Source: Coriobacteriia bacterium (lineage in GTDB: Bacteria > Actinomycetota > Coriobacteriia > Anaerosomatales > PALSA-660). From it: a stretch of DNA of 64,000 nt. The position numbers and the translations under genes were made by a program. The first letter of the stretch is position 1, and each line of letters opens with the position of its first letter. The notes under the pieces are model-generated. The model saw only the letters and a program-made list of their open reading frames with translations, was not told where the DNA came from and made no database searches. Shown here in pieces: positions 16,097-33,864 of this stretch. The stretch is taken from assembly GCA_025361335.1 (NCBI GenBank), contig JANYAK010000033.1:21246-85245 (forward strand), in the 5' to 3' direction.

Positions 16097-16112
16097 GGCT
16101 GTCCCTCCTTCG

Positions 16113-16700
16113 CTACGGGGTCGTCGGCGCCGCGGCGGCGCTCGGTGTCATGACGTAGGCGCGCATGCTGACGTTGGCCAACACGTACGGCACTTCGGTC
16201 GACGTCGGCGACACTGACGCCTCCGGCGCCAGCGCGACGTCCGTGACCCTGATGACGCGCGTCATCCGATCCAGGCGTCCCAGATAGTCGAGGATGTCGG
16301 GCCACTGCCCTCGCAGGACCACGGCCAGCGGGATCTCGCTGTACTGACCGCTCGCGGCGGACACGGGCACACCGGGCGTCACGCTGTTGAACCTGAGGCC
16401 GGCCGCGTTCGAGACATCCTGCAGCTCGATGATCACCGACGGCAGCTCGGGGTTCTCCGGGAACTGGTTGGCGAGCCGGAGGAGCTCGGCCTGCGTCAGA
16501 GCCGCCGTCGACTTGGCCTGCTCCAGCTGCGCGAGCAGCGTCTTGGACTGCTCGACTTGCTGGAGCACCGTCTGCCGATCGCTCTCGACCAGTCCGAGCT
16601 CGCCGAGCTTCGGAAGGATGAGAAGGACCGCCGCGGCGATCACGGCGATCACCATGAGCGCGATGGCGGCCAGCAGCTTCTGCCTCGACGTGATCTTCAT
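16113..16700 (-). CDS. pilO: Type IV pilus assembly protein PilO
   Basis: 195 aa. N-terminal TM 'LLAAIALMVIAVIAAAVLLIL', then a coiled coil and a C-terminal alpha/beta domain. It follows pilN. Confidence 0.75.
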   Translation of the reverse strand: MKITSRQKLLAAIALMVIAVIAAAVLLILPKLGELGLVESDRQTVLQQVEQSKTLLAQLEQAKSTAALTQAELLRLANQFPENPELPSVIIELQDVSNAAGLRFNSVTPGVPVSAASGQYSEIPLAVVLRGQWPDILDYLGRLDRMTRVIRVTDVALAPEASVSPTSTEVPYVLANVSMRAYVMTPSAAAAPTTP

Positions 16701-16725
16701 CCGAGTGGCCTCTTCATCGTGTCAC

Positions 16726-18605: not shown

Positions 18606-18762
18606 ATGCTAGCACACCGGATGATCCCGGCTCGTGCCCAAGTCTCGAACCCCGATTCCGACGTGAATGTATCGCTCACGCGTGCGATTTGCAACATTGG
18701 CGGCCTCCGCGCCGCGCGCCGCGCCCCGCTGGCGCCGCGCGCGAGCCGTCTCAGATGATGGG

Positions 18763-20313
18763 TCAGGGCCTCGCGATGTTGCCCTTCATGATGTAGGCCA
18801 TGCCGCGTCCCGGCAGGCTCTCCGGCAGGTACTTGGGGAGATTCTCATTCATGAACAGATGCACGTTGTTCGCCGCGAAATACAGCTCCTTGGTGAGCAC
18901 CGACCCGCGTACCTGCTGGTTGGTGAGAAAGCCGACCTGCTCCTGCCCGTACAACGCTCCGGCGAATTCGGGAGTCGGGGTCAGATCCTTCGGATTGCCG
19001 TTCGCGGGGCTGATCTGGATGGAGATCTTGCCTGGAGTGACTAGACCCAGAGCCTCGCCGTTGGACTGCATGGCGGCCCATCCCGGATTGAGTGGATACA
19101 CGGGGCATGTGATGAAGATGTCGCCGTTGGCGACGATGGTGCCGTTACCGACGTACTTGACCGGCCCGCCTTCGAACTTCACGTCGCCGTCGACGAACAC
19201 CGTTCCCTCGACATAGAGGGTCTTGCTGCCGTCCACGACGTTGTACACGTAGGCGAAGTCGTCGTGCACGGTCGTGTTGAACTGGTTCGTGTAGCCGGCC
19301 TTACCGAATGAATCGGTACCGCCGATCACGAGAGCGGGTGTGCGGGCGCTGGGCCACGGCCCGGCCCACGCCGTCGTGGGCCCGGTGGTGGTGCCGATGA
19401 CCTTGTAGTATGCGGATGCATTGGGCGCCTTCACGCGAGGACCGGGTGGTGTCAGCGCGGCGTACGTCGCGGGATCCCCGCCCGTCGCTTCCTTGTTCTC
19501 GGTCGTCGCGAGATCCGGGCCCATCTTGTTGTCCGTCGACTGCCTCTTGGCCTTCTCATACATGGTGGTGAGGTACACCAGGTCGAGAGGCGGGAGCGTG
19601 ATCCTGGGGACGGACGACGACACGTACGAGTAGTGCCCGCCCTTGGGCGTCGCGTCACCCGCATCGGGCGGATAGGACTTCTCGCAGAACAGCCGGATCT
19701 TCTCAGCGGGTGTCCCGAGGTGCGAATCCCCAGCGAGGCTGATGTCGCCGTTCTTGACGAACAGCGGGCCCTTCTCGATGTTGGCTCCACCGCCAAGCTG
19801 TATCGAGCCGGCCACGTAGAGCGGCCCATACACGTTCCCCGTCCCCTGGACGCCGCCGCCGCCGGCTGTCATGGAGCCGGAGCCGACGCTGAACTCCCAC
19901 AGGTTCATGTAGAAGAACTTCGTCTGGATGATCTCGGCGGCACCGCGGCGAGACAGCCCTCGGGACACGGCCTCGACCTCCGAGAAGGGCTTGGGCGTGA
20001 GGGTCACCACGTAGGAGCCGCCGCCTGTCACGGCGCCGGTGACCACCATCGGCGGCTGCCCTACGGCCGGGAGCCCGCCCATGGTCTGTATCTTGGACAG
20101 GGCCGCGTCCAGACCGGCGCTGGCGACCTGATAGGCATCGGACTTCGTCTGCGTGTTGCCCGCTTCCGTCAGGGCCTGACCGCCCAGCCAGAACGCCATG
20201 ACGGCGAGTACCGTCATGAAGGAGATGACGCCCATGACGATGACCATGGCTACGCCACGATCATCTCTCAGCGTGTCGCGCACGTGCTCGTTCACAGGGA
20301 CACCAGCTCTCAC
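18763..20313 (-). CDS. Large PilX-N-terminal-domain protein (putative pilus tip/minor-pilin-associated protein)
   Basis: 516 aa. The N-terminus 'RDDRGVAMVIVMGVISFMTVLAVMAFWLGG' is a PilX_N-type hydrophobic segment without Glu+5. The C-terminal ~350 aa carries repetitive G-x-V/I beta-strand patterns such as 'GTVFVDGDVKFEGGPVKYVGNGTIVANGDIFITC'. GTGA overlap with the upstream minor pilin gene. Confidence 0.6.
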   Translation of the reverse strand: MRAGVPVNEHVRDTLRDDRGVAMVIVMGVISFMTVLAVMAFWLGGQALTEAGNTQTKSDAYQVASAGLDAALSKIQTMGGLPAVGQPPMVVTGAVTGGGSYVVTLTPKPFSEVEAVSRGLSRRGAAEIIQTKFFYMNLWEFSVGSGSMTAGGGGVQGTGNVYGPLYVAGSIQLGGGANIEKGPLFVKNGDISLAGDSHLGTPAEKIRLFCEKSYPPDAGDATPKGGHYSYVSSSVPRITLPPLDLVYLTTMYEKAKRQSTDNKMGPDLATTENKEATGGDPATYAALTPPGPRVKAPNASAYYKVIGTTTGPTTAWAGPWPSARTPALVIGGTDSFGKAGYTNQFNTTVHDDFAYVYNVVDGSKTLYVEGTVFVDGDVKFEGGPVKYVGNGTIVANGDIFITCPVYPLNPGWAAMQSNGEALGLVTPGKISIQISPANGNPKDLTPTPEFAGALYGQEQVGFLTNQQVRGSVLTKELYFAANNVHLFMNENLPKYLPESLPGRGMAYIMKGNIARP

Positions 20314-20903
20314 TCCGTGGCGCGGTTTCGCAGGTACACGGTCTGGGACGTCTCAAAGTCCGACCCGCGGGCGCGAAGTGCCAAGGTCATCACTATCGTG
20401 CGCGCGGCCGAGGGCGCCACTTCGGCGATCTGCGCGCCTGTGAGCTCGGTGCGGTCGTCGCGGTAGTAGCGGAACAGCGACACGCCCTTCGACACGTTCA
20501 CGCATGAATCCGAGTAGCGGAAATCCACGCGCGGAGCCACGGTCGTGTTCACGAAGGCGCTGTTGATCGACCACTCGCGATACCGGATCCATCCGGCCGA
20601 CGTAGCATCGACGATGATGCGCTGACCGGTGCCGTTCATCTGGCGATCCGTGCGGAACGTGACGGACTGCGCGGTCGTGTTCTCGAGCTGGATCGCCTGC
20701 ATGAGCTGCCTGATGATGAGCCGCATCGGCTCACCGGAATCGCGCGCGAAGATGGACTGCGACTCGCTGACCTGAGCCGCCATGATCATGGCGTTCGACG
20801 CGGAGTATATGGCGGCAAGCACGACGCCCATCAGCCCGAGCACGATCATCAACTCGGTGAGCGAGAAGCCCTCGTCACGCGCCCTGAAGCGTCCGCCACT
20901 CAT
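20310..20903 (-). CDS. Minor (pseudo)pilin with prepilin N-terminal cleavage/methylation motif
   Basis: 197 aa. 'RARDEG|FSLTELMIVLGLMGVVLAAIY' shows Gly-1, Phe+1 and Glu+5. Confidence 0.8.
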   Translation of the reverse strand: MSGGRFRARDEGFSLTELMIVLGLMGVVLAAIYSASNAMIMAAQVSESQSIFARDSGEPMRLIIRQLMQAIQLENTTAQSVTFRTDRQMNGTGQRIIVDATSAGWIRYREWSINSAFVNTTVAPRVDFRYSDSCVNVSKGVSLFRYYRDDRTELTGAQIAEVAPSAARTIVMTLALRARGSDFETSQTVYLRNRATE

Positions 20904-22555
20904 CAGAACGAGTCACTCCCGGGAAGCGCCGCGGCGGTGGCCGCGACCGTCGCCGGTACCGGCCCCACGACGTGGGATTCGATCGTGCGCGACGTGGCGT
21001 CCTTGTTGCCGCCGGGGGTGAACGTCACAACGTACTTGTAGTAGTAGGCGGCCACGACGGCCTTGTTACCCAAGGCCTCGTCCGACCGGGTGTACGTCGG
21101 GCCCGCCGCCGCGAACTGGTTCGCGGCGTCGCCGGCCGGCCACGTCACCCCATTGGTGCTGCGCCACACCTGGTAGCTGATCGCCGACGTCGAGAACGTC
21201 GGCGGGGTGATCGCCAGCGTGAGATTCGTCGTGATCTTCTCATTGCTGCCGCTGCCCGTCTTGGTGCTTTGGTAGGTGCCCTTGATCTTGGGCCGCGTCA
21301 CCAGCGGGACGACCGTCTGGTCCGTCATGCCGCCGTTGGCGGATGGCGACTGGCCGAACGAGTTCGCCGGAAGGATCCTGAACCAGTACCGCGTGAACGG
21401 GAGGGCGCTGGTCCACCGATACGAGGGCGCAGCGGGATCATAGGTGGGCGACACGAAGTGCACCGCGCCGGAGTCGGGCACGTCGTTCCAGCCGGTCGGC
21501 CCGCTACCAGCGATGGGAGTGCCGCTCACGCCGGCCCTGTCGGACCACGGATGGACCGTGTAATAGGTCGCGTAGTCGCTCACCCCCGCGCCATCCATGG
21601 ACGGACCCCACGCGATCGTGATCGTGTGGTCGCTGTTCTCGACGGGCACCGGCGGGCTGGAACATGCGGTCGGCGGCTGGTTGTCGATGGTCACCCAACG
21701 CTCGACCGTCCCGGGGCGCGACTGGTTGTCATAGGCGACGATGTAGATCTTGCGCTGGCCATCCGGGTAGTAGGGAGTGCCGTCCGCCTGAGTCGCCAAG
21801 GTGTTCCAGTAGAACGAGTACGTCCCACTCTGGACGGCGAGGTCGATCCACTCGCCTGTCGTCCCTGAGTTACTGGGAATCCCCCCGCCGGCCCCGAACA
21901 GCACGGGGACCCCGCAGAACATCTGGAGCCGCTTGATCGTCCCGCCCGTGTTAGGCGTCGACACGTGCGCCGTGACCATGATGCTGTTGCCGCGGATGAC
22001 CGCTCCCGAGGCCGGAGCCTGTCCGTCCACGAACGAGATGACCGGCACGGCCGTCCCCCCGGTGCCGCCCGTGGTCCCACCCGGGATCGCGACGATCTCG
22101 CCCGGTGCGCGGACATAGGTGGCGTAGGTCTGGACGACCGGGCGGCGGGTGAGCGCCCCCACCGAGACCACGACGACGACCTGCTTGTAGTTCTGGACCC
22201 CTGAGATCGCGGGGTCATCGACCCAAGTGACCGTGGGGGTGATCGTTATCTCGAAGCTGCCGCTACGGGCGACGGTGTTCACGGGCAGGCTGCCCTCGAT
22301 GGAGCCGCCAGCGCCTCCCGCCACCCCGACACTGGCGAATGGCATCGATCGCACGGCCTCGAGGTACGAGTGCGACGCGGCGGTCGCCACGTTCTGCTCC
22401 TTGGCTTGCACGCTCATCTGGGTCGACTTGAGGAGCAGCCCGAGTAGCGCGCTGACGGCGATGAGAAGGATGACCGCCGCGATCATGAGTTCGAGGAGGG
22501 TCATGCCCGCGTCGCCGCGGCACCAGGTCCGGATGCGACCCATCGCGCCTGTCAT
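20903..22555 (-). CDS. Large PilV-like minor pilin with C-terminal Ig/FN3-like domains
   Basis: Track ORF extends to 22648. ATG at 22555 (M32) is preceded by GGGAGGAG 6 nt upstream. Leader MTGAMGRIRTWCRGDAG|MTLLELMIAAVILLIAVSALLGLL has Glu+5. An FN3-like signature 'ITIAWGPSMDGAGVSDYATYY' is present. 550 aa. Confidence 0.7.
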   Translation of the reverse strand: MTGAMGRIRTWCRGDAGMTLLELMIAAVILLIAVSALLGLLLKSTQMSVQAKEQNVATAASHSYLEAVRSMPFASVGVAGGAGGSIEGSLPVNTVARSGSFEITITPTVTWVDDPAISGVQNYKQVVVVVSVGALTRRPVVQTYATYVRAPGEIVAIPGGTTGGTGGTAVPVISFVDGQAPASGAVIRGNSIMVTAHVSTPNTGGTIKRLQMFCGVPVLFGAGGGIPSNSGTTGEWIDLAVQSGTYSFYWNTLATQADGTPYYPDGQRKIYIVAYDNQSRPGTVERWVTIDNQPPTACSSPPVPVENSDHTITIAWGPSMDGAGVSDYATYYTVHPWSDRAGVSGTPIAGSGPTGWNDVPDSGAVHFVSPTYDPAAPSYRWTSALPFTRYWFRILPANSFGQSPSANGGMTDQTVVPLVTRPKIKGTYQSTKTGSGSNEKITTNLTLAITPPTFSTSAISYQVWRSTNGVTWPAGDAANQFAAAGPTYTRSDEALGNKAVVAAYYYKYVVTFTPGGNKDATSRTIESHVVGPVPATVAATAAALPGSDSF

Positions 22556-22682
22556 CTTTCTCCTCCCCTTCCGTCGCAGCAGCGGTCGCCCGAACGGCGC
22601 CACGACGGAATCCGGGCGCTCTTCCGTTCTCATTATCGTCCGATTCACGAGACTTCATGAGTCGCTCGCGACGGGCGACTGA

Positions 22683-23546
22683 TCACGCGGCGCCGAGCAG
22701 TCCCAAGTAGCCGTGCCACAGCCAAGGGCCGACCATGACGGCGATGACACCGCCCATGGCGAGGAACGGGCCGAACGGGATGCTGTGCGTGGAAAGCTCG
22801 CCTCCCGATCGCCGCGCCCCCACGATCCCGGCGATCGCGCCGACGAGGCTCCCCGCGAACAGGGCGACCAGGACGTATCCGCCGATGAAGAGGCCCATCG
22901 CCCCGAGCAGCTTCACGTCGCCGGCACCGAGGCCGCTGCGCCCGCGAAGCGCCCCATATGCGCCCGCGATGCCTCCGCTCAATCCCATCCCGAGCACGGC
23001 GCCGGCCAGAGACGCGACCAGCGGCATGGCGAATACGCCGGCCCGCGCGGCGCCGACCAACGGCACCATGCCTGCTTCCGTCAGCTGGCTGAAAGCGGCT
23101 CCCACCAGACCCAGGCCGGCTAGCACCCCGACCAGGACGTTGGGCAGCCGGCGCGTGTCGATGTCGATGAACGCCAGGATGAGCAGAAGGTAGAAGAGGA
23201 CGACGCAGGCGACGGTCCGCCATGAGGGCCCGAAGCGCAGCGCGGCGGAGGCCCACAGGACGCCCGACAGGAGCTCGACAAGCGGATAGCGCCCCGAGAT
23301 CGGGGCTCCGCAGTCGCGGCATCTCCCGCCCAGGACGAGCCAAGACGCGATGGGCACGTTGTCGTACCAGCGCACCGGATGCCCGCACGCCGGGCACCGC
23401 GAACCGGGCGACACGATCGACTCGCCGCGGGGAACGCGCCAGATCACCACATTGGCGAAGCTGCCGAACAGCAGGCCGAAGAACGCCAGGCTGACCGGCA
23501 CGAACCACGAGAGGAAATCCACACTCACCGCTTCCGTCGGCTGCAA
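22683..23546 (-). CDS. pilD: Prepilin peptidase (A24 family)
   Basis: 287 aa. N-terminal Cys box 'CPACGHPVRWYDNVP...GRCRDCGAPI'. Catalytic Asp motifs 'FIDIDTRRLP' and 'GLGAGDVKLLGAMG'. Polytopic membrane protein. Confidence 0.9.
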   Translation of the reverse strand: MQPTEAVSVDFLSWFVPVSLAFFGLLFGSFANVVIWRVPRGESIVSPGSRCPACGHPVRWYDNVPIASWLVLGGRCRDCGAPISGRYPLVELLSGVLWASAALRFGPSWRTVACVVLFYLLLILAFIDIDTRRLPNVLVGVLAGLGLVGAAFSQLTEAGMVPLVGAARAGVFAMPLVASLAGAVLGMGLSGGIAGAYGALRGRSGLGAGDVKLLGAMGLFIGGYVLVALFAGSLVGAIAGIVGARRSGGELSTHSIPFGPFLAMGGVIAVMVGPWLWHGYLGLLGAA

Positions 23547-23617
23547 CCGTGGTCGGACCAGATTGTAGCCTCACCAGGCGGGCCGGCCCAACTCGCCCTC
23601 TAACCGGCTGATGACGT

Positions 23618-23651
23618 GAAGAGGGCCGGCGGTCGCCCGCCGGCCCTCTTC
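23618..23651 (-). terminator. Perfect 15-bp GC-rich hairpin just downstream of pilA (terminator/attenuator candidate)
   Basis: gaagagggccggcgg-tcgc-ccgccggccctcttc. It lies 18 nt after the pilA stop (23669) and before pilD. No clear U-tract. Confidence 0.55.
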
Positions 23652-23668
23652 TTGCGAGATCGTCTTAG

Positions 23669-24076
23669 CTACTCGTGGTACTTGTGGCCCAAGGCGACGT
23701 TTGGGCAAGCGAACGTACCGGCGGCGACAGTGTACACAACGGGAGCGTTGGCCACCTGTGTCGGGCATGTCGTGGACTTGGCCCAGTCCTTGACGTAGAT
23801 GCCGGTCTTGCCGTCGCCGTTACCGGCGGTGGAGATCGCACCTTGGGCAGCTGCGAGCGTGTCCATGCCGGTAACGGTGTTGGCCTCATTGGCGGCGACC
23901 CACTGCTGGACCGCACCGTCGAGAACACGCAGGTTGTTCTGGCAGGCGCTCTTACGGGCGGATGCACTGGCCGAGTTGAAGACAGGGATAGCGATAGCAA
24001 CAAGGATACCGATAATGAGGACGACGACCATGAGTTCGACGAGGGTGAAGCCCTCGTCCTTCCTGAACATCTTCAT
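23669..24076 (-). CDS. pilA: Major type IV pilin (PilA-like)
   Basis: This is the last 135 codons of track ORF 23669..24682. ATG at 24076 is preceded by GGAGGTG. Sequence MKMFRKDEG|FTLVELMVVVLIIGILVAIAIPVF has a 9-aa leader, Phe+1 and Glu+5. C-terminal Cys pair in 'TTCPTQ...FACPNV'. The upstream part of the track ORF is Arg-rich and looks spurious. Confidence 0.9.
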   Translation of the reverse strand: MKMFRKDEGFTLVELMVVVLIIGILVAIAIPVFNSASASARKSACQNNLRVLDGAVQQWVAANEANTVTGMDTLAAAQGAISTAGNGDGKTGIYVKDWAKSTTCPTQVANAPVVYTVAAGTFACPNVALGHKYHE

Positions 24077-24216
24077 CAAGATGTCCACCTCCCCTTCCAT
24101 TTGCTGACCTTCGGGACACGCCGTCTGCGCAACCCTTCCAGAGTCAGTATCGGCATGCGGGAAGGGGGCTTGAGAGGAAATCCCTATGGCACGCCTCGAC
24201 CGCAGGCGGCGACGCC

Positions 24217-25431
24217 CTACTTGACCAGAGTGATGACCTCGAACATCGGCATATACAGCGCGATGACGATCCCGCCGACCAAGAGGCCCATGACGGCCAT
24301 CATCACGGGCTCGATCACCGACGTGAGGCCGTCGACCGCGGCCGCGACCTCTTCGTCGTAGAAGTCGGCGATCTTGTTCAGCATGGCGTCGAGTGCACCG
24401 GTCTCCTCGCCGACCGCGATCATCTGGACGAGCATCGACGGGAACACGGGGGATTCGGCCAGCGGCTTGGCGATCGTCTCGCCCTCCTTGATGGCCGAAC
24501 GGACCTTCTTGACGGCCCGCGACACGACCTCGTTGCCGGACGTGGCTCCCACGATCTCCAGCGCGGAGAGGATGGGCACGCCGGCGGAGACGAGCGTCCC
24601 GAAGGTCCGCGTGAACTTGGCGAGCGCGATCTTGCGCACGATCGATCCGAACAGCGGCGCCCGCAGCTTGATGCCGTCCCACATGAAGAGACCGGCATCA
24701 GTGCCCTTCCACCAGCGGAACAGGAAGTTGAATCCGAAGATGCCGACGACGACCGCCAATCCCGGCCAGCTGCGTGCGCCCGCTGAGATGTTCACGAGGA
24801 TCTGCGTCGGCAGGGGCAACTGGCCGCCCATGGACGCGAACATGCCCTGGAAGACGGGGACGACGAACACCATCATGGCGATGAGGATCGTCAGGACGAG
24901 GGCCCCCATGGCGACAGGGTAGGTCATGGCCGACTTGATCTTGCCCTTGAGGAGCTGCTCGCGCTCGAAGTGGTCGGCGACGCGGCTCAGCACCTCGTCG
25001 AGGACGCCGCCGGTCTCGCCCGCGCGGACCATGTTGACGAAGATCGGGGGGAACACCTTGTTGTGTCGCCCCATCGATTCGGAAAGGGACTGACCCGACT
25101 CGACGTCCCTTCCCACCTGTGCGATGACGGTGCGGAGGCCGTCACTCTCAGTCTGCTGGCCAAGGATGGCCAGGCACTTGGTGAGAGACAGCCCGGCGTT
25201 GATCATCGTGGAGAACTGACGCGCGAAGATGGTGATGTCCTTCACCTTGATGCCGGTGCCGAACTTCACGGCGCTGAGCTGCGCGAGAAGACCGCCGCCC
25301 TCTTCGAGGCTGACGATCACATAGCCCATCTGGCGCAATCGGCCGGATACGGCTTCCTTGCTGTCGCCTTCGAGAGCGCCGTCGACGGTCTTACCCGCCT
25401 TGTCGCGCACCGTGTATCTGTAGGTGGGCAT
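24217..25431 (-). CDS. pilC: Type IV pilus platform protein PilC (GspF family)
   Basis: 404 aa. Starts 'MPTYRYTVRDKAGKTVDGALEGDSKEAVSGRLRQMGY'. Two GspF repeats and three TM regions. Confidence 0.9.
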   Translation of the reverse strand: MPTYRYTVRDKAGKTVDGALEGDSKEAVSGRLRQMGYVIVSLEEGGGLLAQLSAVKFGTGIKVKDITIFARQFSTMINAGLSLTKCLAILGQQTESDGLRTVIAQVGRDVESGQSLSESMGRHNKVFPPIFVNMVRAGETGGVLDEVLSRVADHFEREQLLKGKIKSAMTYPVAMGALVLTILIAMMVFVVPVFQGMFASMGGQLPLPTQILVNISAGARSWPGLAVVVGIFGFNFLFRWWKGTDAGLFMWDGIKLRAPLFGSIVRKIALAKFTRTFGTLVSAGVPILSALEIVGATSGNEVVSRAVKKVRSAIKEGETIAKPLAESPVFPSMLVQMIAVGEETGALDAMLNKIADFYDEEVAAAVDGLTSVIEPVMMAVMGLLVGGIVIALYMPMFEVITLVK

Positions 25432-25632: not shown

Positions 25633-27306
25633 CTAGACGATGACCCTCGTGATCTCCTCGATCGACGTCTGGCCCAAGCGGCATTTCTCAAGGCCGTCTT
25701 CCCGCAGGGTCATCATGCCTTGCATGATCGCGACCTTCTTCACTTCCTCGGCGGTGGCGTCCTCGACGGCCAGCCGGGAGATCTCCTCCGACATCAGGAG
25801 CACCTCGTGGACGCCCATGCGACCTCGATAGCCCGTGCCGCCGCACTTCTTGCAGCCTTTCGGCCGCCACAGCTTGTCGGGAAGGTTGTCGGGGTTGTAT
25901 CCCGCGTCGAGGAGGACCTGCTTGATGGGCACGTACTCCTCTTTGCAGTCGGAGCACAGGCGCCGCGCCAGGCGCTGGCCCAGGACGCAGTCGAGAGCGG
26001 ACGAGACGAGGAACGGCTCGACGCCCATCTCGACCAGTCGGGTGACCGCGCCCGCCGCGTCGTTGGTGTGCAGTGTCGACAGCACGAGGTGGCCGGTGAG
26101 CGCCGATTCGATGGCGATCTTGGCCGTCTCCTGGTCGCGGATCTCGCCCACGAGGATGACGTCGGGCGAGCACCGTAGGAACGAGCGCAGAGCGGTCCCG
26201 AACGTCAGACCCGCCTTCGCGTTCGTCTGGATCTGGTTCACGCCAGGCAGGCGGTACTCGACGGGATCCTCGGCCGTGATGATGTGGCGATGCGGCTCGT
26301 TGAGCACGTTGATCGCCGCGTAGAGCGACGTCGACTTCCCCGACCCGGTGGGGCCCGTGACGAGGATGGCACCGTACGGCTTGCGGAACGAGGATTCGAA
26401 CCGCTCGAGCGCGGTGGGCAGGAAGCCGAGATCCGACAGCTTGAGGAGGATGGAGTCTTTTCGCAGGATTCGCAGGACGACCCGTTCCCCGTACACCGTG
26501 GGCAGAGTCGAGACTCGGAAGTCGAGCTTGTGCCCGCTGATCGTGAGGGCGCAATGGCCGTCCTGCGGCTTGCGGGTCTCGGCGATGTCCATGTCCGCCA
26601 TGACCTTGAAACGGCTCAGGATCGCCGATTGGGTGGACTTCGGACTGTGCATCATCTCGTGCAGTACGCCGTCGATCCGGTAACGGATGCGCAGGTCGCG
26701 TTCCTGCGGCTCGATGTGGATGTCGGAGGCTCGATCCGCGACCGCCTTCGCGATGATGAAGTTGACCAGTTTCACGATGGGAGCGTCGGCGGTGACCTCG
26801 GACAGCTCGGACAGGTCGTCGGAGATCAGTTCCTCTACGCCGCCCCAGTCGTCCGTCTGGACATGTTCCGCCACCGTGTAGGCGTCCTCGATGACCGAGA
26901 GGATGTCATCCTTCGTCGAGATGGCAGGACGTATCTCGTACCCGGTGATGATCCGCAGGTCGTCGAGCGCGAGGACGTTCTGCGGATCGGCCATGGCGAC
27001 CAGCAGCCGGTTCTGCTCGTCGAATCCGACGGGCATCAGGACATATCGTGTCGCGAGCTCCTTCGGCACGATGGCGACGGCCGCCGGGTCCGGCTTCCGC
27101 TCGGCGAAGTCGACATAGGGGATGCCGATCTGCTGCGCCATCACGGCCAGGATCGACCCTTGCGTGGCGTATCCGAGCTCGACCAGGACGCGACCGAGCG
27201 GACTGTCCGTGGCCCGGTGGACCTCCACGGCGTCGTTGAGTTGACCTTCGGTGATGACACCGGCCTTCATGAGGAGCTGGCCGAGTCGTTCGCCGGCTTC
27301 TGCCAC
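25633..27306 (-). CDS. pilB: Type IV pilus extension ATPase PilB paralogue 1 (GspE family)
   Basis: Track ORF is 911 aa, but its first 354 codons are Arg/Gly-rich and run through two other genes. GTG at 27306 (V355) has GAAGAGGTG upstream and gives 557 aa. N-terminus 'RLGQLLMKAGVITEGQL...' is T2SSE_N/MshEN-like. Walker A 'GPTGSGKST', 'LVGEIRD', and a tetracysteine 'CSDCKEEY...CKKCGGTGYRGR'. Confidence 0.9.
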   Translation of the reverse strand: MAEAGERLGQLLMKAGVITEGQLNDAVEVHRATDSPLGRVLVELGYATQGSILAVMAQQIGIPYVDFAERKPDPAAVAIVPKELATRYVLMPVGFDEQNRLLVAMADPQNVLALDDLRIITGYEIRPAISTKDDILSVIEDAYTVAEHVQTDDWGGVEELISDDLSELSEVTADAPIVKLVNFIIAKAVADRASDIHIEPQERDLRIRYRIDGVLHEMMHSPKSTQSAILSRFKVMADMDIAETRKPQDGHCALTISGHKLDFRVSTLPTVYGERVVLRILRKDSILLKLSDLGFLPTALERFESSFRKPYGAILVTGPTGSGKSTSLYAAINVLNEPHRHIITAEDPVEYRLPGVNQIQTNAKAGLTFGTALRSFLRCSPDVILVGEIRDQETAKIAIESALTGHLVLSTLHTNDAAGAVTRLVEMGVEPFLVSSALDCVLGQRLARRLCSDCKEEYVPIKQVLLDAGYNPDNLPDKLWRPKGCKKCGGTGYRGRMGVHEVLLMSEEISRLAVEDATAEEVKKVAIMQGMMTLREDGLEKCRLGQTSIEEITRVIV

Positions 27307-27455: not shown

Positions 27456-28070
27456 CTAGGACTCGTCGACCTTCTTCAGATCCGCCAGAAGCGCGTCGGC
27501 CAGTCGCGTGAACCGCAGATGGGTGGGTGTGCCGGGCCGGACCCCTACGGCCTTCGAGCCGTCGGCAAAGCCGATCTCGACCGGCGCGACGAGGCGGCGC
27601 TCCGGCGGCGCGATGGAACCTGCAGATGTGGGAGCGGCGACGGGTCCGACGGGGAACCCCGTGGGCGCGATCGCCACGGCGGGCGGAAACTCGACCGCAG
27701 GCTCGAGGGCGGCGGGGACCTCGGGTACGAGGACCGTCTCGAGCACGCCCTCGCCCCCCGCGTCCGGCGCCCACGGGAACACGGGTTCCGGCTCCGGCTC
27801 GGGCTCCGGCGCGGCCTCCGGCTCGGGCTCGGGCTCGGGCTCCGGCGCGGCCTCGGGCTCCGGCTCCGGCTCCGGCTCCGGCGCGGCCTCGGGCTCGGGC
27901 TCGGCCGCCGGTGATTCGGGCGCCACCTTGTCGGGTGACAACGCCGCGACCTCGCGGCGTCGCCGCGCGAGCCGGCCTCTGACCTCCCATTGGACGTAGA
28001 AGACGACACAGCCGAGCAGCACTACGGCCGCCGCGAGCAGAACCGTGATCCATATCGCCATGTGGCTCAC
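27456..28070 (-). CDS. Single-pass membrane protein with ([12 protein letters not shown])x3 linker, function unknown
   Basis: 204 aa. N-terminal TM '[22 protein letters not shown]', basic stop-transfer '[10 protein letters not shown]', a Pro/Glu tandem repeat and an ~100-aa C-terminal domain. The start (GTG 28070 or ATG 28061) abuts the GTPase stop. Confidence 0.6.
27802..27909 (-). repeat. In-frame 36-bp tandem repeat x3 (encodes [12 protein letters not shown])
   Basis: The core 'ggctccggcgcggcctc' recurs at 27802, 27838 and 27874 (36-nt period), embedded in ggctc[cg]gg runs. Confidence 0.8.
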
Positions 28071-28616
28071 TCAGCCCATGCTGTCGAGGATCCGATACAG
28101 GAGGCCCAGCAAGATCCCCTTCACGGATTCCTTGTCGCGTGCATCGACCGGCAGCAGCGGGACGTCCTCGGACAGCCCGAGGCGCCCTCGCAGGGTGCCC
28201 AGCGTCGCCGTGTCCTCCGGCGCGACCTTGTTCGCGGCGACCACGAACGGGACGTCCGACATGCTCGTGAAGAACTCGATCATGGCCACCGCCTCCTCGA
28301 TCGAGTCGGATGACAGGGCATCCACCAGAACGACGAAGCCCAGCATGCCTTCGGAGAGCGTCTCCCACATGAACGAGAACCTCTGTTGCCCCGGGGTGCC
28401 GAACAGGTAGAGCACGACGTCGTCCGAGACAGTGATTCGCCCGAAGTCCATCGCGACGGTGGTCTCGCCGGGCCCCTCGCTCGAAACGTCCGTTATCTGG
28501 CGCTCCGTCGACAGCACCGTGATCTCGCTCACGGCCTTGATGAACGTCGTCTTGCCGGAATTGAAGGGTCCCGTGACCACGACCTTCACTGACTGCATGC
28601 TGGGCGGTGCTCCCAT
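28071..28616 (-). CDS. Small P-loop GTPase, MglA/CvnD-like (COG2229-type ATP/GTP-binding protein)
   Basis: 181 aa. G1 'VTGPFNSGKTT', G2 Thr in 'GETTVAMDFG', G3 'LFGTPGQQRF', G4-like 'AANKVA' in which the Asp of NKxD is replaced by Ala. Alternative start ATG 28598. Confidence 0.8.
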   Translation of the reverse strand: MGAPPSMQSVKVVVTGPFNSGKTTFIKAVSEITVLSTERQITDVSSEGPGETTVAMDFGRITVSDDVVLYLFGTPGQQRFSFMWETLSEGMLGFVVLVDALSSDSIEEAVAMIEFFTSMSDVPFVVAANKVAPEDTATLGTLRGRLGLSEDVPLLPVDARDKESVKGILLGLLYRILDSMG

Positions 28617-28627
28617 CGATCGCCTTG

Positions 28628-30286
28628 CTACAGGTGTCTGACGCCTTCGATGATCTTCATCATGAGTTCTCGGTCGACATGCATGTCGCGGTGCAGCGAC
28701 GCTCCCTCGATCGACGACTCCGGGGACTTCGAGATGCTCGCGGTCGGCCTCGCCCGGCTGTGTCCGCCCCCCGTCAACGCGGTGAGCTCGTCCCCGAGCC
28801 CGGAGGAGAACGACACGTCACCCGCATCGAATTCCGACAGGAAGGCGTCCGTCGAGATGACAGCGTCGGGCGCCTCCCCCGTCGCGGCCGCCTCGCCCGG
28901 CGTCGAGCCGGCGAGAGCCGCGGCCTCGATCTCGGCGATGGTCGGCTCGGGCTGGGCGTCGGACGGCGCGGCGGGCGCCTCTCCGAGTCCGAGAGCCATC
29001 AGGTCGACGGCGAAGTCACCGGTTCTCTCGGGAGCGGAGCCCGGGACCTCGGCGGGCGGGATGACCGAGGCCGGCTCCGAGGCCCGCGGATACCCCGCGG
29101 GCGACTCGACGGCGGTGTGTTCCAGCGTCTCGAGAAGGCCCGCAAGATCGAGCCCCGGGGCCGCCGGAGGGGCGAAGCTGGCGGGCACGTCCGCGGGGGG
29201 CGCGGTCCAAGCGCTCGCGGACGACACGCCGGGCGGCGTCTGTGACTCGAGTCGAGGCTCGACGCTCGGCACGGGCGCCCGTGGCGTTGTCGCCGGTGTC
29301 GCTTGGACAGCCGTGGAAGGATCGAGCACCGCGCCCAGCATCTGCTGGAACACCGCCATGTCGTCGACCGTGGCCGCTCCTTGACCCGCGCTCAGGAAGG
29401 CGGGCTCCTCGGCAACGCGGTCCGGCGCGCCCTCCCGCGGGGCGGACGCGCCGGTCGCCGCCGGAGGAGCGGTGACTTGGACGGCCGCCTCCTGCGCCCT
29501 CCTGAGGCCGTCGGCGGCGATCACCATCTCCGTGGCGGCCCGCTCGGCACGCAGGCGCTGCACCTCGGCTTCGGACGCAACCTCGAGAAGGCCCGCGGAG
29601 AAGAGCCCGTACAGGACGCGGGCGACCTCGAAGTCGGTCCTGTCGAGCTCGCGCGCGAGGTCGGACACCGCTCGCGTCCCATCGATCCTGAGCAGGATGT
29701 TCCACTCGGCGGGCTTCAACGAGATGTCGAACGTGCCTTCGCCCGGCGCGGTGGCCATCTTGAACACGACACCCATCGACGGGATCTTCTTCTTGATGCG
29801 GGTCCATTCCTCGAGGCGCCTCGACCCCTCCATGACGATGTTCTCTATGGAGACGGACAGCCCGATGTCCTCTTCGGGCGCCTCCGCGAGGTCTTCGAAG
29901 TCGAAGTCGCCCTCGTCCCATCGGAACAGATCGAAGATGGTGTCCTGGATCTGCTCCTGAACGAAGGACTCCAGCACCTTGTCGGTCGTGTAGCCCTCGT
30001 CCACGAGGATCTGCCCGAGCCTGCGACCGCCGGGCGGCTCGATGCGCTGCAGGTCGAGCGCCTTGGCCAGCGCGCTGGGGGTTATGCGGCCGCCGGTGAC
30101 CAACCTGGTGCCCAAAGGCTCCCTGTGCCAGTCGGACTGGGCGAAGAACACGTTCCCCTCGCGGAACCACACGCTGCCCTCGGCATCAGCGCGCTTGATG
30201 CGCAGGACTCCCGTCTTCCCGCTCAGAGTCACGAGCTGGAAGACATCCGGCAGGCTGAAGTCCCTGAGGTTGCCGCGTAGTGCCAT
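28628..30286 (-). CDS. DUF4388 (PATAN-like) domain protein with tandem MshEN-like motifs, HTH-like segment and long Ala/Pro-rich tail
   Basis: Track ORF extends to 30388. ATG at 30286 (M35) gives 552 aa starting MALRGNLRDFSLPDVFQLVTLSGKTGVLRIKRADAEGSVWFREGNVFFA, which I recognise as a DUF4388 N-terminus. It is followed by PLGTRLVTGGRITPSALAKALDLQ...RLGQILVDEGYTTDKVLESFVQEQ and then 'ILLRIDGTRAVSDLARELDRTDFEVARVLYGLFSAGLLEV'. Confidence 0.75.
   Translation of the reverse strand: MALRGNLRDFSLPDVFQLVTLSGKTGVLRIKRADAEGSVWFREGNVFFAQSDWHREPLGTRLVTGGRITPSALAKALDLQRIEPPGGRRLGQILVDEGYTTDKVLESFVQEQIQDTIFDLFRWDEGDFDFEDLAEAPEEDIGLSVSIENIVMEGSRRLEEWTRIKKKIPSMGVVFKMATAPGEGTFDISLKPAEWNILLRIDGTRAVSDLARELDRTDFEVARVLYGLFSAGLLEVASEAEVQRLRAERAATEMVIAADGLRRAQEAAVQVTAPPAATGASAPREGAPDRVAEEPAFLSAGQGAATVDDMAVFQQMLGAVLDPSTAVQATPATTPRAPVPSVEPRLESQTPPGVSSASAWTAPPADVPASFAPPAAPGLDLAGLLETLEHTAVESPAGYPRASEPASVIPPAEVPGSAPERTGDFAVDLMALGLGEAPAAPSDAQPEPTIAEIEAAALAGSTPGEAAATGEAPDAVISTDAFLSEFDAGDVSFSSGLGDELTALTGGGHSRARPTASISKSPESSIEGASLHRDMHVDRELMMKIIEGVRHL
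29951..30118 (-). other. Tandem MshEN-like 24-residue motifs inside the DUF4388 protein (possible c-di-GMP-binding module)
   Basis: Residues 57-80 and 89-112 both fit xLGxx[LVI][LVI]xxG..xxxxLxxx[LV]xxQ. See the corresponding finding. Confidence 0.45.
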
Positions 30287-30341
30287 GCTGTACGGTCCCG
30301 CTCTCCCTCTTCGAGCCAGGCGGCTTCGTCGGCCGAGCCGG

Positions 30342-31076
30342 CTAGCGCAGTGTCTCGCCGATCTCGGCGGCGGTCTGCCGCATGTCATAGATGATCAGAC
30401 CCAGCTTGCCGTCGGCATCCGCGAGGACCGTGAGAACGGCCCGGTCCCCGGCCGCCATGAGGAGGACGTATCCATCGGCCCCCTCGATGAACACCTGCGA
30501 CAGATGACCCCGGCCGAGCTCAGCGGCCGCCCGCTCACCGAGTCCGAGGATCGCCGCCGACATCGCGCCGACGCGATCCTCCTGCATGCCTTCCGGGAGA
30601 GCCGACGCCATGGTGAATCCGTCCAAGCTGACCAGAGCCGCCGCCTGGACGCCCGGGGAATGCTCCATGAGAGAGTCCAGGGCCCGCACGAGCCTCTCTT
30701 CGCGGTTGGCCGTCGGGACCACGCTCCCGGGACGCGGAACCGGGCTGACGACCGAGCCTGGGATGGGCGCGGCGGGTTCGGGCGCGACCGGCATGGCAGT
30801 CTGCGTGGTGGGCGCGTAGCTCACGGCCGGCGTGGCCGGCATGTAGCTCGCGGGCGGCACGGCCGGGGTGTACATGGCCGGCGGCGCGACCGGCTCGGCC
30901 GGGGTGTAGCTCACGGCCGGCGCGGCCGGGGTGTAGCTCACGGCCGGCGCGACCGGGGTGTAGCTCACGGCCGGCGCGACCGGCACGACGACCGGAGCGG
31001 CCGAGATGTCGCCGTCTTCGTCGTAACCTTCGTCGACGTCGCTGATGAAGTAATCGCCGATCCCCGCGTCTGTCAT
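30342..31076 (-). CDS. Roadblock/LC7 (MglB-like) domain protein with acidic N-terminus and Pro-rich 9-aa repeats
   Basis: Track ORF extends to 31133. ATG at 31076 (M20) has GGAGGTG 7 nt upstream and gives 244 aa. The C-terminal ~115 aa 'LDSLMEHSPGVQAAALVSLDGFTMASALPEG...AMSAAILGLGERAAAELGRGHLSQVFIEGADGYVLLMAAGDRAVLTVLAD' shows the Roadblock/LC7 pattern. Confidence 0.75.
   Translation of the reverse strand: MTDAGIGDYFISDVDEGYDEDGDISAAPVVVPVAPAVSYTPVAPAVSYTPAAPAVSYTPAEPVAPPAMYTPAVPPASYMPATPAVSYAPTTQTAMPVAPEPAAPIPGSVVSPVPRPGSVVPTANREERLVRALDSLMEHSPGVQAAALVSLDGFTMASALPEGMQEDRVGAMSAAILGLGERAAAELGRGHLSQVFIEGADGYVLLMAAGDRAVLTVLADADGKLGLIIYDMRQTAAEIGETLR
30901..30981 (-). repeat. In-frame 27-bp tandem repeat x3, near-identical (encodes APAVSYTP[VA]); degenerate copies extend to ~30807
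   Basis: ggggtgtagctcacggccggcgcg[ga]cc occurs at 30901, 30928 and 30955, with one mismatch among the three copies. Confidence 0.85.
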
Positions 31077-31234: not shown

Positions 31235-32911
31235 TCACACCACCACGCGCATGATCTCCTCGATCGACGTCATGCCGGACTTGACCTTGGCGAACCCGTC
31301 GTCCCTCAAAGTCATCATGCCCTCGGCGACGGCATGGCGACCGAGCTCGTCCGATGAGGCGTGCTCGACCGCGAGCCGCTCGAGCGATTCCGTCATCGTC
31401 ATGACCTCGTGGATCCCCATGCGGCCCTTGTAGCCGATGCCGCCGCACTTCTTGCACCCCTTGGCGCGATACAGCTGGGGCATGTTGCCCGGGTCGTAGG
31501 GGAATCGGATCCTATCGAGCGCCTCAGGCGTGGGCGTGTAGGCCTCCTTGCACGCCGGGCACAACCGGCGTGCAAGACGCTGCGCGAGAACGCAGTTGAC
31601 GGCCGACGCCGACAGGAAGGGCTCGATGCCCATCTCGGTGAGCCGCGTGATCGCGGACGGTGCGTCGTTGGTGTGCAGGGTCGAGAGCACGAGGTGACCG
31701 GTGAGGGCGGCCTCGATCGCGATCGTGGCCGTCTCCTTGTCCCGGATCTCGCCGATCATCACGGTGTCGGGGTCTTGACGCAGGATCGAGCGCAGCGCGG
31801 CGGCGAACGTGAGACCGGCGCGTTCGTGGACCTGCACCTGGCTGAGCCCGTCGAGCCGGTATTCGACCGGGTCTTCGACGGTGATGAGGTTCGTCTTCGG
31901 GTCGTTCGTCTTGTTGATGGCCGCGTAGAGCGTCGTCGACTTGCCCGATCCGGTCGGGCCCGTGACCAGGATGCACCCGTACGGCTTGGTGAGCGCGTCC
32001 ATGAGGCGCTCGAGCGGCTGCTGCAGGAAGCCGAGGTCCTCGAGCGACATCATGATGGAGCTTCTCCGCAAGAGCCGGATGACGCACATCTCCCCCTGCA
32101 CCGTCGGCAGGACCGCCACGCGGAAGTCGACCGGAGCGCCGTCGAGCACGACGCCGAATCGCCCGTCCTGAGGGATGCGCTTCTCGGCGATATCCATTCC
32201 CGAGGCGATCTTCACCCGGCTGATGAGCTGGCGATGCAGCTTCTTCGGGCTCTTGACGACCTCCTGGCACACGCCGTCGATGCGGTACCGGACGCGCAGC
32301 TCGTTCTCCTGGGGCTCGATGTATATGTCGCCTGCGCCCTGGCGGATCGCCTCGGTGATGATGAGGTTCATGAGCTTGGCCACGGCCGACTCCTCGCCGG
32401 ACTCGACCGCCTCCTCCTCGTCGGCGCCTCCCTTGGCCATCGAACCTGTCACGTCGCCGACCATCTCTTCGACGTCGGTCTGCATCGAGGAGTACTTCTC
32501 TATGGCCTGCAGCAGGTCGCTCTCGGTAGCCACGACAGGCCGTATCTCGTAGCCGGTGACGATCCTGAGGTCGTCGATGGCGAAGATGTTGGCCGGGTCC
32601 GACATGGCCACGACGAGCTCTTCATCCTGGAACGCGATCGGCAGGACGCTGTAGCGGCGGCACAGATCGGTGGCCAGCGCCGTCGCCGCATGCGCGTCGA
32701 CCTCGTAGCCGGCGATGTCCACGAAGGACAGCCCCATCTCGTCCGCGACCGCTTGGGCGATCTTGACCTCCGTGGTAAGGCCCAGCTGGACGAGCGATTG
32801 CGACAGAGTGGCGCCCTCGGCGCCCGCCATCGCCTCTTCGAGCTGCGGCTCGGTGATCACGCCGGCCTTCACCAGTATCCTGCCGAGCCGCTTGCCGCTC
32901 GCGGCCGTCAC
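31235..32911 (-). CDS. pilB: Type IV pilus ATPase PilB paralogue 2 (GspE family)
   Basis: Track ORF is 641 aa, and its first 83 codons overlap aroE. GTG at 32911 (V84) overlaps the aroE stop (GTGA) and gives 558 aa. N-terminus 'RLGRILVKAGVITEPQLEEAM', Walker A 'GPTGSGKST', 'MIGEIRD', and tetracysteine 'CPACKEAY...CKKCGGIGYKGR'. Confidence 0.9.
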   Translation of the reverse strand: MTAASGKRLGRILVKAGVITEPQLEEAMAGAEGATLSQSLVQLGLTTEVKIAQAVADEMGLSFVDIAGYEVDAHAATALATDLCRRYSVLPIAFQDEELVVAMSDPANIFAIDDLRIVTGYEIRPVVATESDLLQAIEKYSSMQTDVEEMVGDVTGSMAKGGADEEEAVESGEESAVAKLMNLIITEAIRQGAGDIYIEPQENELRVRYRIDGVCQEVVKSPKKLHRQLISRVKIASGMDIAEKRIPQDGRFGVVLDGAPVDFRVAVLPTVQGEMCVIRLLRRSSIMMSLEDLGFLQQPLERLMDALTKPYGCILVTGPTGSGKSTTLYAAINKTNDPKTNLITVEDPVEYRLDGLSQVQVHERAGLTFAAALRSILRQDPDTVMIGEIRDKETATIAIEAALTGHLVLSTLHTNDAPSAITRLTEMGIEPFLSASAVNCVLAQRLARRLCPACKEAYTPTPEALDRIRFPYDPGNMPQLYRAKGCKKCGGIGYKGRMGIHEVMTMTESLERLAVEHASSDELGRHAVAEGMMTLRDDGFAKVKSGMTSIEEIMRVVV

Positions 32912-33864
32912 GTGACCGCCCCCCTGGGGGCGGCCGCCACGGCAGCACCGAGGGCCTCCGTGGCGGCGGCACGCATGACGTCGCGGGGTGCGACGGCCTG
33001 CGAGCCTTGGTTCCAGATCTCGATCGCGATCGCACCTTGATCGATGAGCATCCCGAGGCCGCCCAACGTGCGTGCGCCGCGTGCGGCGGCGGCGTCCATG
33101 AAAGGCGTGACCGCGGGCCGGTACACCATGTCGGCTACCACCTGTCCGGGCTGGATCCACTCCGGCGGGACCGGCAGTTCGTCGGACGGCGCCATCCCCA
33201 GTGGGGTGGCGTTGATCACCAGATCCGCGGCCTCGACCGCCTCGCGCGCCTTCGGCCCGAGTTCCACCGCCACCGCAACGGTCTGGCGCAGGCTCGACAC
33301 CACGTTGTCGATCATCACCTCGGCCGCATCCAGCCGTCGCCCCGCGATGGTCACGTGCCCCGCGCGCTCCAGCAGTAGGCCCACGAAAGCGGCTCCCGCG
33401 GCGCCGCCCGTCCCGATCACGACAGCGCGCTTCCCCTTCACGTCGAAGTCGGCGTCCTGCCTCAGGGACTCGACGAAGCCGCGACCGTCCGTGTTGTAGC
33501 CGATGAGCCTGCCGTCGTCCACGTGGACCGCGTTCACCGCTCCGGCGAGACGAGCCGCCGTGGCCACCTCATCGCATATGTTGAGCATCAGCCGCTTGTA
33601 CGGCATGGTCACATTGAAGCCGACGAACGGGAGGACCCGGATCGCGGAGGCGACGCGCATCAGATCGCCGCCCGACCGGAGCGGCATCGGGATGTAGACC
33701 CAGTTCAACCCCATGGCCGCGTAGGCGGCGTTGTGTATCGCGGGCGACAGCGTGTGATCCAGCGGCCAGCCGATCACTCCCGCGAGCTTGGTTAGCGGAT
33801 CGATGTGGGGTGGCACGTGGTGCGCCGGCCTTCCTTCGGCCCGAGCGAGCGCGCCCGCCGTCAC
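32908..33864 (-). CDS. aroE: Shikimate dehydrogenase
   Basis: 318 aa. Motifs 'VIGWPLDHTLSPAIHNAAY', 'NVTMPYK' and NADP motif 'VIGTGGAAGAA'. Confidence 0.9.
   Translation of the reverse strand: MTAGALARAEGRPAHHVPPHIDPLTKLAGVIGWPLDHTLSPAIHNAAYAAMGLNWVYIPMPLRSGGDLMRVASAIRVLPFVGFNVTMPYKRLMLNICDEVATAARLAGAVNAVHVDDGRLIGYNTDGRGFVESLRQDADFDVKGKRAVVIGTGGAAGAAFVGLLLERAGHVTIAGRRLDAAEVMIDNVVSSLRQTVAVAVELGPKAREAVEAADLVINATPLGMAPSDELPVPPEWIQPGQVVADMVYRPAVTPFMDAAAARGARTLGGLGMLIDQGAIAIEIWNQGSQAVAPRDVMRAAATEALGAAVAAAPRGAVT

Follow-up and report, generated by a model that had tools for sequence, protein, structure and literature searches.

The 64,000-nt window analysed here, that is, the whole stretch of DNA under study (contig JANYAK010000033.1 of a Coriobacteriia bacterium of the Anaerosomatales; G+C content of approximately 68%, with nearly all genes on the minus strand), carries a four-gene cassette lodged between two genes for PilB-type pilus assembly ATPases, pilB1 and pilB2. 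The cassette lies entirely on the minus strand and encodes a Roadblock/LC7 protein, a PATAN (DUF4388) protein, a small GTPase and a membrane protein, the last referred to below as the product of the fourth gene. On this strand the 5′ to 3′ order runs aroE, pilB1, Roadblock, PATAN, GTPase, fourth gene, pilB2, pilC, pilin, pilD and further genes down to aroC (Table 1). The junctions within the cassette measure 55 nt, 29 nt (or 11 nt if the GTPase begins at its earlier start codon) and 0 nt, which bears out an earlier note on this DNA, prepared without database searches, that had described four co-directional genes with junctions of 0-55 nt between two PilB genes. The cassette most likely controls the pilus assembly motor.

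Relatives of the window GTPase were collected by scanning one genome per species (185,579 species), which yielded 574 relatives, and the best 80 loci were fetched and compared by tblastn with the window proteins to obtain locus counts; individual fetched loci are designated by numbers prefixed with L. These loci span Coriobacteriia/Anaerosomatales, Frankiales, Mycobacteriales, Acidothermaceae, Nanopelagicales, Sporichthyaceae, Candidatus (Ca.) Geothermocultor and Chloroflexota. Roadblock and PATAN genes lie 5′ of the GTPase gene in all 53 Actinomycetota loci, with aroE upstream of the cassette in 51 and a full-length PilB downstream in 49 of the 53. The pilus linkage recurs across Coriobacteriia, Frankiales, Mycobacteriales, Acidothermaceae, Nanopelagicales and metagenome-assembled genomes (MAGs) of Geothermocultor; in an Acidothermus MAG (L042), for example, the same cassette is followed by PilB. 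Neighbourhood look-ups with precomputed Pfam annotation give the same patterns. Since dozens of independent genomes share this gene order, the arrangement is beyond chance, and the suggestion that the module belongs with pilus genes is upheld by this survey.

The two-PilB bracket is a feature of a close clade, defined as the Actinomycetota loci whose GTPase is at least 66% identical to that of the window. The upstream PilB1 is present at 23 of 23 close-clade loci, compared with 2 of the remaining 30 Actinomycetota loci (L035 and L060); the other 28 more distant loci carry the same cassette with PilB solely downstream, in the order aroE-Roadblock-PATAN-GTPase-(fourth gene)-PilB-(short ATPase)-PilC. 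PilB1 and PilB2 of the window are 52.6% identical, and both possess MshEN and T2SSE domains. In a midpoint-rooted neighbour-joining tree, PilB2 clusters with the PilBs that other Actinomycetota have downstream of the cassette, and PilB1 falls in a separate clade of upstream paralogues. A variant arrangement occurs in L090 (10001-11716), where the Roadblock gene is absent, PATAN still stands between two PilBs, and the GTPase homologue no longer has a P-loop lysine (GTPHAGTT) or a GTPGQ motif; this variant fits a GTPase-activating protein (GAP) that is needed only with an active GTPase, and a PATAN-PilB core. In L075 (5231-9982) and L080 (5120-9982), three tandem Roadblock paralogues lie 5′ of a PATAN gene encoding 1130-1183 aa, with the cassette upstream of aroE. 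At many related loci (e.g., L004, L009 and L014), a third ATPase of T2SSE type, a short one, lies between PilB2 and PilC.

The GTPase is a small Ras-superfamily protein matching PF03029, Arf and Ras, and its start is more likely the ATG at 28598, because the homologues are 175 aa long and an exact 175-aa product exists in a public assembly. The P-loop GTPase with the G1 and G3 motifs first noticed thus stands, and its length is probably 175 aa and not the 181 aa proposed with them. The motifs GPFNSGKT and LFGTPGQ are present in the window protein and invariant across 79 orthologues, as is ETTVAMDFG; in extended form the invariant motifs of the orthologues read TGPFxxGKT, ETTVAMDFGRIT and LFGTPGQxRF. 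A G3 of GTPGQ and a G2 of TT are hallmarks of MglA Groups 2-5 and not of Group 1, to which the Myxococcus and Thermus proteins belong; the window GTPase has neither the intrinsic arginine finger of Group 1 (its G2 reads ETTV) nor TVPGQ in G3. Like Group 5 MglA proteins, it combines GTPGQ in G3 with a threonine in place of the arginine finger beside the G2 threonine, and it is adjoined by a Roadblock/MglB gene and a PATAN gene. Its assignment to the Group 5 type is based on these motifs, on the neighbouring genes and on the Acidothermus entry in the published Group 5 catalogue (see below). Profile searches against PDB retrieved Rab and Arl at approximately 1e-8 and Thermus MglA at 2.8e-6. Over its full length the protein is 43-46% identical to CvnD (annotated as 'ATP/GTP-binding protein') of bona fide conservons on plasmids of Streptomyces, Nocardia and Rhodococcus; six true CvnDs (GTPases of Group 2), to which its overall identity is 44-47%, have NxF at G4 and an extra 8-residue insert between G1 and G2, and the window GTPase has NKVA and no insert.

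The Roadblock protein has an acidic N-terminus followed by proline-rich 9-aa repeats, encoded by a 27-nt tandem unit, and a Robl_LC7 domain (5.6e-19), as first read from its translation. In PDB profile searches its matches are 7f8m (5.7e-27), CvnB5 (3leq; 7e-9), Rv3364c (8e-9) and MglB (approximately 0.09). The first of these, labelled 'Robl_LC7 domain-containing protein', is a very close solved, unpublished relative of the Roadblock domain (window 30342-30749). BLASTP aligns the Roadblock protein to a plasmid-borne CvnB with 29% identity (E 2e-12), so that it can be described as CvnB-type, and the hallmark DG pair can be read off its sequence. By these comparisons, the GTPase and the Roadblock protein resemble CvnD and CvnB of conservons more than they do MglA and MglB of Myxococcus. 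The Roadblock protein is presumed to be the GAP-type partner of the GTPase.

The PATAN protein matches PF14332 (DUF4388/PatA_N) at 1.3e-34, with 119.3 bits against a gathering cutoff of 25, which secures the DUF4388 assignment first made by eye. An AlphaFold2 model built from 46 sequences reaches a predicted local distance difference test (pLDDT) score above 90 at aa 1-270 and shows a beta-rich core split by helices (aa 58-121) that are inserted between beta strands as an alpha-helical clip. A winged helix (aa 192-236) and the C-terminal helix are also modelled with confidence. No Response_reg match was found in the protein with Pfam, that is, the receiver of PatA-type regulators is absent. 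The Ala/Pro-rich region noticed earlier is disordered in the model; orthologue alignments, including the short Chloroflexota forms (275-295 aa) in which the winged helix runs almost straight into the conserved terminal helix, identify this stretch as a variable insert. The top PDB fold matches of the PATAN model, all weak (E approximately 0.05-0.2), are Nprl2/Nprl3 of the GATOR1/SEA complex, winged-helix GAP components for Rag GTPases, which may be a coincidence.

The winged helix accounts for the helix-turn-helix-like stretch that had been compared with DUF742/CvnC: the element itself is genuine, and the evidence that ties it to DUF742 in particular is weak. MarR_2 is matched by 25 of 60 PATAN orthologues (best E 3.5e-5), and the best PDB fold matches are MarR-type and other winged helices, all of them weak and none with E <= 1e-3. 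The window protein has no Pfam match to PF05331 (DUF742), which is matched weakly by 6 of the 60 orthologues (best 4.4e-4). An hhalign comparison of the winged helix with DUF742 gives a weak probability of 29% (E 5.7e-4), and its alignment with CvnC is in register and equally weak (BLASTP E 0.29). The likeness is probably that of a generic winged helix. A C-terminal helix apparently common to PATAN and CvnC, noted by eye (..LLxRhhxGhRxL-COOH), was dropped after a hidden Markov model (HMM) of the PATAN C-terminus recovered 0 of 7 CvnC proteins among 17,657 open reading frames (ORFs).

The MshEN-like motifs first noticed in the PATAN protein correspond to NF053729, the NCBIfam model of the MshE-related motif for cyclic di-GMP (c-di-GMP), whose cutoff is 38 bits. 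The window PATAN protein scores 39.9-42.4 bits within its clip, compared with 55.2 bits for PilB2 and 38.2 bits for PilB1. PATAN orthologues of the close clade and of L075 score 38.7-49.9 bits; those of L060 and of Chloroflexota fall under the cutoff, and no match was obtained among those of Actinomycetes. Residue by residue, the clip can be aligned with the N-terminus by which MshE (5htl) binds c-di-GMP and with PilB (5zfr). All 24 clade members carry motif II of the clip (RRLG...Q) unchanged, and it is intact in the window protein.

The fourth gene encodes a protein without a Pfam family or a PDB relative, and its database relatives are small and all labelled hypothetical. As anticipated from its translation, it is a membrane protein, with an N-terminal hydrophobic helix and a linker of three 12-aa repeats encoded by a 36-nt DNA unit. 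Across Coriobacteriia, the protein has the N-terminal membrane helix, a linker that is rich in Pro, Ala and Glu and varies, and the motif hVAPVEhxFxDG..hGV+xGT.T...F.+hA..Lh.DL; the Actinomycetes version is 80-110 aa long and has the form MWPFRR..GRHALGAAV...Pro-rich...PRVELGFRDGSTAALAPGS.QAKALTEIA..LTRRD, and in Ca. Geothermocultor it is reduced to the membrane helix and the motif. With an HMM of this motif, the fourth gene was detected directly 3′ of the GTPase gene in 51 of 62 Actinomycetota loci, compared with 0 of 9 Chloroflexota loci; it is therefore a genuine and conserved component, one that belongs specifically to the cassette in its pilus-linked form. AlphaFold2 models a confident C-terminal helix alone, preceded by a weakly defined strand, and a fold search was dropped because the confident part is too small. 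A '177-aa unknown' of L090, considered as a homologue, was rejected, since it is the degenerate GTPase of that locus. In the close relative L002 (10516-11754), the public annotation calls a 307-aa ORF on the opposite strand over a fourth gene that has the conserved C-terminal motif, and annotation probably overlooks members of this family in high-GC genomes.

PATAN genes beside MglB and MglA genes were noticed by Makarova et al. (2006) and by Wuichet & Sogaard-Andersen (2014), whose Table S2 lists the order MglB>PATAN>MglA as 'MglA Group 5' in Aquificae, Chloroflexi, Cyanobacteria, Deinococcus-Thermus and Actinobacteria, with Acel_1323 of Acidothermus cellulolyticus among the actinobacterial entries. 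The cassette shares with these trios the three families, the order seen in many of them, the GTPGQ of G3 and the TT of G2. The catalogued neighbourhoods are widely variable and pilus genes go unmentioned, whereas the Actinomycetota trio described here is embedded in a pilus operon and accompanied by a fourth conserved gene, joined in the window's clade by a second PilB and a c-di-GMP-type clip. In Synechocystis, PATAN domains bind the N-terminus of PilB1 and PilC's N-terminal domain, and MglA/MglB homologues often neighbour PATAN genes (Han et al.). The claim that this composition matched no described system therefore has to be withdrawn, given the Group 5 trios catalogued in 2014 and the published contact of PATAN with PilB and PilC. 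The searchable literature holds no description of the trio inside actinobacterial pilus operons, of the fourth gene or of experiments on Group 5. The three-gene core was thus already catalogued and is unstudied, and what appears to be new is its embedding in a pilus operon, the fourth gene and the clade-specific two-PilB bracket.

Other known systems share parts of this architecture. Conservons (AGPS) have the same order of Roadblock protein, middle protein and GTPase, and the middle protein has a winged helix, as DUF742 does; here, however, a PATAN protein takes the middle position, and the genes lie in a pilus operon. No CvnA kinase was found, the upstream genes being pilB1 and aroE, and the Pfam-annotated neighbourhoods contain no kinase-like gene, kinases not being among the proteins searched in the tblastn survey. 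The description of the module as conservon-like and kinase-less was apt, in view of this absence, of the identity to CvnD and of Roadblock matches of approximately 1e-8 to CvnB5 and Rv3364c. In the mycobacterial Mfp conservon, MfpD (the CvnB homologue) is a GAP for MfpB, and MfpC (the CvnC homologue) is likely a guanine nucleotide exchange factor (GEF). With the MglA-MglB system of Myxococcus and Thermus (which includes SgmX and SofG) the cassette has in common a small GTPase, a Roadblock partner and a connection to type IV pili; in contrast, the Group 1 hallmarks are absent here, the similarity is marginal, and the Myxococcus genes lie outside the pil operon. The cyanobacterial PATAN-REC proteins PixG, PixE and TaxP1 likewise have a PATAN domain with an alpha-clip, and they bind PilB1/PilC and steer pilus activity. 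Unlike them, the window protein has no receiver, so that its input would be the GTPase and perhaps c-di-GMP instead of phosphorylation, and its C-terminal half holds a winged helix, a long insert that is disordered, and a terminal helix. The MshEN receptors (MshE, Clostridium PilB2 and NfrB), defined by 24-residue motifs in tandem that each read RLGxxL(V/I)xxG...Q, resemble the PATAN protein in the NF053729 match above cutoff and the intact motif II, and differ from it in that the motif here lies inside a PATAN domain instead of an ATPase N-terminus and that the motif I arginine is mostly replaced.

We lean, if modestly, towards the reading that the four proteins form a nucleotide-dependent switch that acts on PilB via the PATAN adaptor and is dedicated to the monoderm-type pilus machine of Actinomycetota. 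What is observed is the set of genes, the identity of their domains and the conserved linkage to pil genes; the protein-protein contacts, the GAP and GEF roles, the binding of c-di-GMP and the phenotype are what we infer. The GTPase would alternate between GTP and GDP states, and the Roadblock protein would be its GAP, in the manner of MglB towards MglA and of MfpD towards MfpB. The PATAN protein would be the effector or adaptor, its PATAN domain engaging the PilB N-terminus and/or PilC as in the PatA-type proteins of Synechocystis, and its winged helix and C-terminal helix would contact the GTPase, possibly in a GEF-like manner, as proposed for CvnC/MfpC. The fourth protein, with its membrane helix in the window's clade and its conserved C-terminal motif, may tether the complex to the membrane beside the pilus base. 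The output would be nucleotide-dependent on/off switching, or placement, of PilB pilus assembly. Because the PATAN clip retains an MshE-type motif, c-di-GMP may provide a second input beside the motif-bearing PilB2, in the window's clade only.

Several observations weigh against this switch or narrow its scope. The motif I arginine of the PATAN clip is absent in 22 of 24 clade members, being replaced by proline or leucine in 21 (proline in the window) and by glutamine in 1, and both clip motifs are degenerate in Actinomycetota outside the clade; c-di-GMP binding by PATAN would be at best clade-specific and may use half a site. In Chloroflexota the trio is ordered PATAN-GTPase-Roadblock, and a pil gene was found near it in 0 of 9 loci (DNA up to 10 kb on each side), so linkage to pilus genes in cis is not obligatory for the trio. 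The target of the winged helix could be DNA and not the GTPase. Co-transcription of the operon is suggested only by the short gaps and the lack of strong terminators, and a scan of the operon for promoters and terminators gave nothing decisive. Cultured Anaerosomatales are non-motile and bear pili-like appendages over the whole cell surface, which are induced by ferrihydrite in one species; a Myxococcus-like polarity role is therefore disfavoured in the clade, and piliation that is switched on and off conditionally is no less likely than polar sorting.

Among the alternative explanations, the one raised in the earlier note is that the switch selects or localises one of the two motors, PilB1 or PilB2. 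The cassette is indeed bracketed by two PilBs throughout the close clade and in L035 and L060, and the two ATPases have diverged both in sequence and in the strength of their c-di-GMP motif. Most carriers, however, have PilB solely downstream (28 of the 30 distant Actinomycetota loci keep the cassette in that form), so motor selection cannot be its general role; since PilB1 belongs to a separate paralogue clade, selection would be at most a clade-specific elaboration, which may operate within the window's clade, and we regard this explanation as unlikely. The confidently modelled winged helix, with MarR_2 matches in 25 orthologues and MarR-type proteins among its best PDB folds, would suit a different proposal, in which PATAN binds DNA and controls the pil operon as a transcription factor, with the GTPase and the Roadblock protein as modulators. 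Those matches are all weak, though, DUF742/CvnC in the analogous conservon slot is thought to act on the GTPase and not on DNA, Han et al. argue that PatA-type regulators do not bind DNA, and no operator-like repeat was seen, although no search aimed at one was made; a transcriptional role is improbable on this evidence.

It is also conceivable that the cassette is a generic conservon-like module that acts on something other than the pilus, such as development or stress responses, and whose adjacency to pilus genes is incidental, in keeping with a GTPase and a Roadblock protein that are closest to CvnD and CvnB and with Chloroflexota trios located away from pil genes. We consider this very unlikely: linkage to PilB (49/53) and to aroE (51/53) is conserved across many Actinomycetota groups, the gaps between the genes are tight or overlapping, and the affinity of PATAN for PilB and PilC has been demonstrated experimentally in Synechocystis (Han et al.).

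A broader form of the PilB switch, which we put forward tentatively, is that the cassette represents an ancestral, built-in controller of the Gram-positive pilus in Actinomycetota, in which PATAN couples a CvnD-like G-protein cycle (and, in Coriobacteriia, c-di-GMP) to PilB and the fourth protein is the pilus-base tether. If true, it would join the MglA/MglB polarity system of Myxococcus, the cyanobacterial PATAN regulators and the actinobacterial conservons, and give Group 5 MglA a first function. Prokaryotic small-GTPase systems are mechanistically understood in few cases, namely MglA of Myxococcus and fragments of the Streptomyces and Mycobacterium conservons, and the widespread Group 5 MglB-PATAN-MglA trios have been functionally unassigned since they were noticed in 2006 and 2014; their embedding in a pilus operon offers a concrete, testable output, PilB. 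The arrangement connects the cyanobacterial PATAN-PilB contact to G-protein control, adds a fourth, unannotated partner, and suggests a way in which pilus assembly might be gated in monoderm bacteria, where little is known of pilus regulation. Organisms available in culture for tests, as carriers or as near relatives, are Acidothermus cellulolyticus and the Anaerosomatales isolates, one of which forms pili-like appendages on ferrihydrite only.

The complete pilus operon of the window sits between aroE and aroC/aroB (12609-33864), and this aroE-pil-aroC layout is repeated across Actinomycetota loci. It has the composition of a monoderm-type pilus operon, with PilB, PilC, PilD, PilM, PilO and pilins with N-methylation motifs identified with Pfam; no secretin domain was found among the operon genes scanned, and no PilT-type (retraction) ATPase within the window. 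The GTG start of pilB1, read from the sequence, shares GTGA with the TGA stop of aroE (32908-32911), and a start codon and ribosome-binding site were identified for pilB2. The part of the operon below pilB2, through aroC (14215-25431), has a matching order in L002 and L090. The 581-aa protein with a prepilin N-methylation motif is probably a giant minor pilin inside the operon.

Table 1. Coordinates of the pilus operon, the embedded four-gene cassette and their sub-features in the 64,000-nt window
Feature	Position (nt)	Strand	Length or residues (aa)	Evidence
aroE (shikimate dehydrogenase), upstream boundary of operon	32908-33864	-		Pfam
pilB1, extra PilB-type assembly ATPase	31235-32911	-	558	MshEN 9.6e-23, T2SSE 7e-137 (Pfam)
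Roadblock/LC7 protein	30342-31076	-	244	Pfam Robl_LC7
Robl_LC7 domain of Roadblock protein	30420-30683		132-219	Pfam
Tandem repeat of Roadblock gene	30816-30983			27-nt unit repeated 5.9 times
PATAN (DUF4388) protein	28628-30286	-	552	Pfam PF14332, NCBIfam NF053729
PF14332 domain of PATAN protein	29804-30277		4-161	Pfam
MshEN-like alpha-clip of PATAN protein	29951-30118		57-112	NF053729; alignment to MshE (5htl) and PilB (5zfr)
Winged helix of PATAN protein	29576-29719		~190-237	AlphaFold2; Pfam matches in 25/60 orthologues
Long helix of PATAN protein			239-272	AlphaFold2 model
Disordered Ala/Pro-rich insert of PATAN protein	28682-29449		~280-535 (about 250 residues)	AlphaFold2, orthologue alignments
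Conserved C-terminal helix of PATAN protein	28631-28681			AlphaFold2, orthologue alignments
Small Ras-superfamily GTPase	28071-28598 (alternative start 28616)	-	175 (181 with alternative start)	PF03029, Arf, Ras
Fourth gene	27456-28070	-	204	No Pfam family; motif HMM
N-terminal membrane (hydrophobic) helix of fourth protein	27990-28058		5-27	
Linker of fourth protein, three 12-aa repeats	27782-27902			36-nt DNA unit repeated 3.4 times
Conserved C-terminal motif of fourth protein	27468-27602			Ends F.RLA..LL.DL
pilB2, canonical PilB assembly ATPase	25633-27306	-	557	MshEN + T2SSE (Pfam)
pilC	24217-25431	-		Pfam
pilin	23669-24076	-		Pfam
pilD	22683-23546	-		Pfam
N_methyl (pilin-like) gene	20903-22648	-	581	Pfam
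N_methyl (pilin-like) gene	20310-20903	-		Pfam
ORF without solid family	18763-20313	-	516	Pfam scan
pilM	17415-18605	-		Pfam
ORF	16726-17514	-	262	Pfam scan
pilO	16113-16700	-		Pfam
ORF	15491-16096	-	201	Pfam scan
aroC	14215-15372	-		Pfam

An Rfam search found no riboswitch or other RNA near the operon; the sole match in the window is a borderline 6S RNA elsewhere (46855-47035, minus strand), which scores 46.5 bits against an Rfam gathering score of 46.4 bits (E 3.5e-6). Elsewhere in the window (53252-56890, minus strand), one long reading frame, its start codon tentative, joins the RecJ domains DHH, DHHA1 and RecJ_OB with HIRAN and a DEAD/Helicase_C helicase, an unusual fusion.

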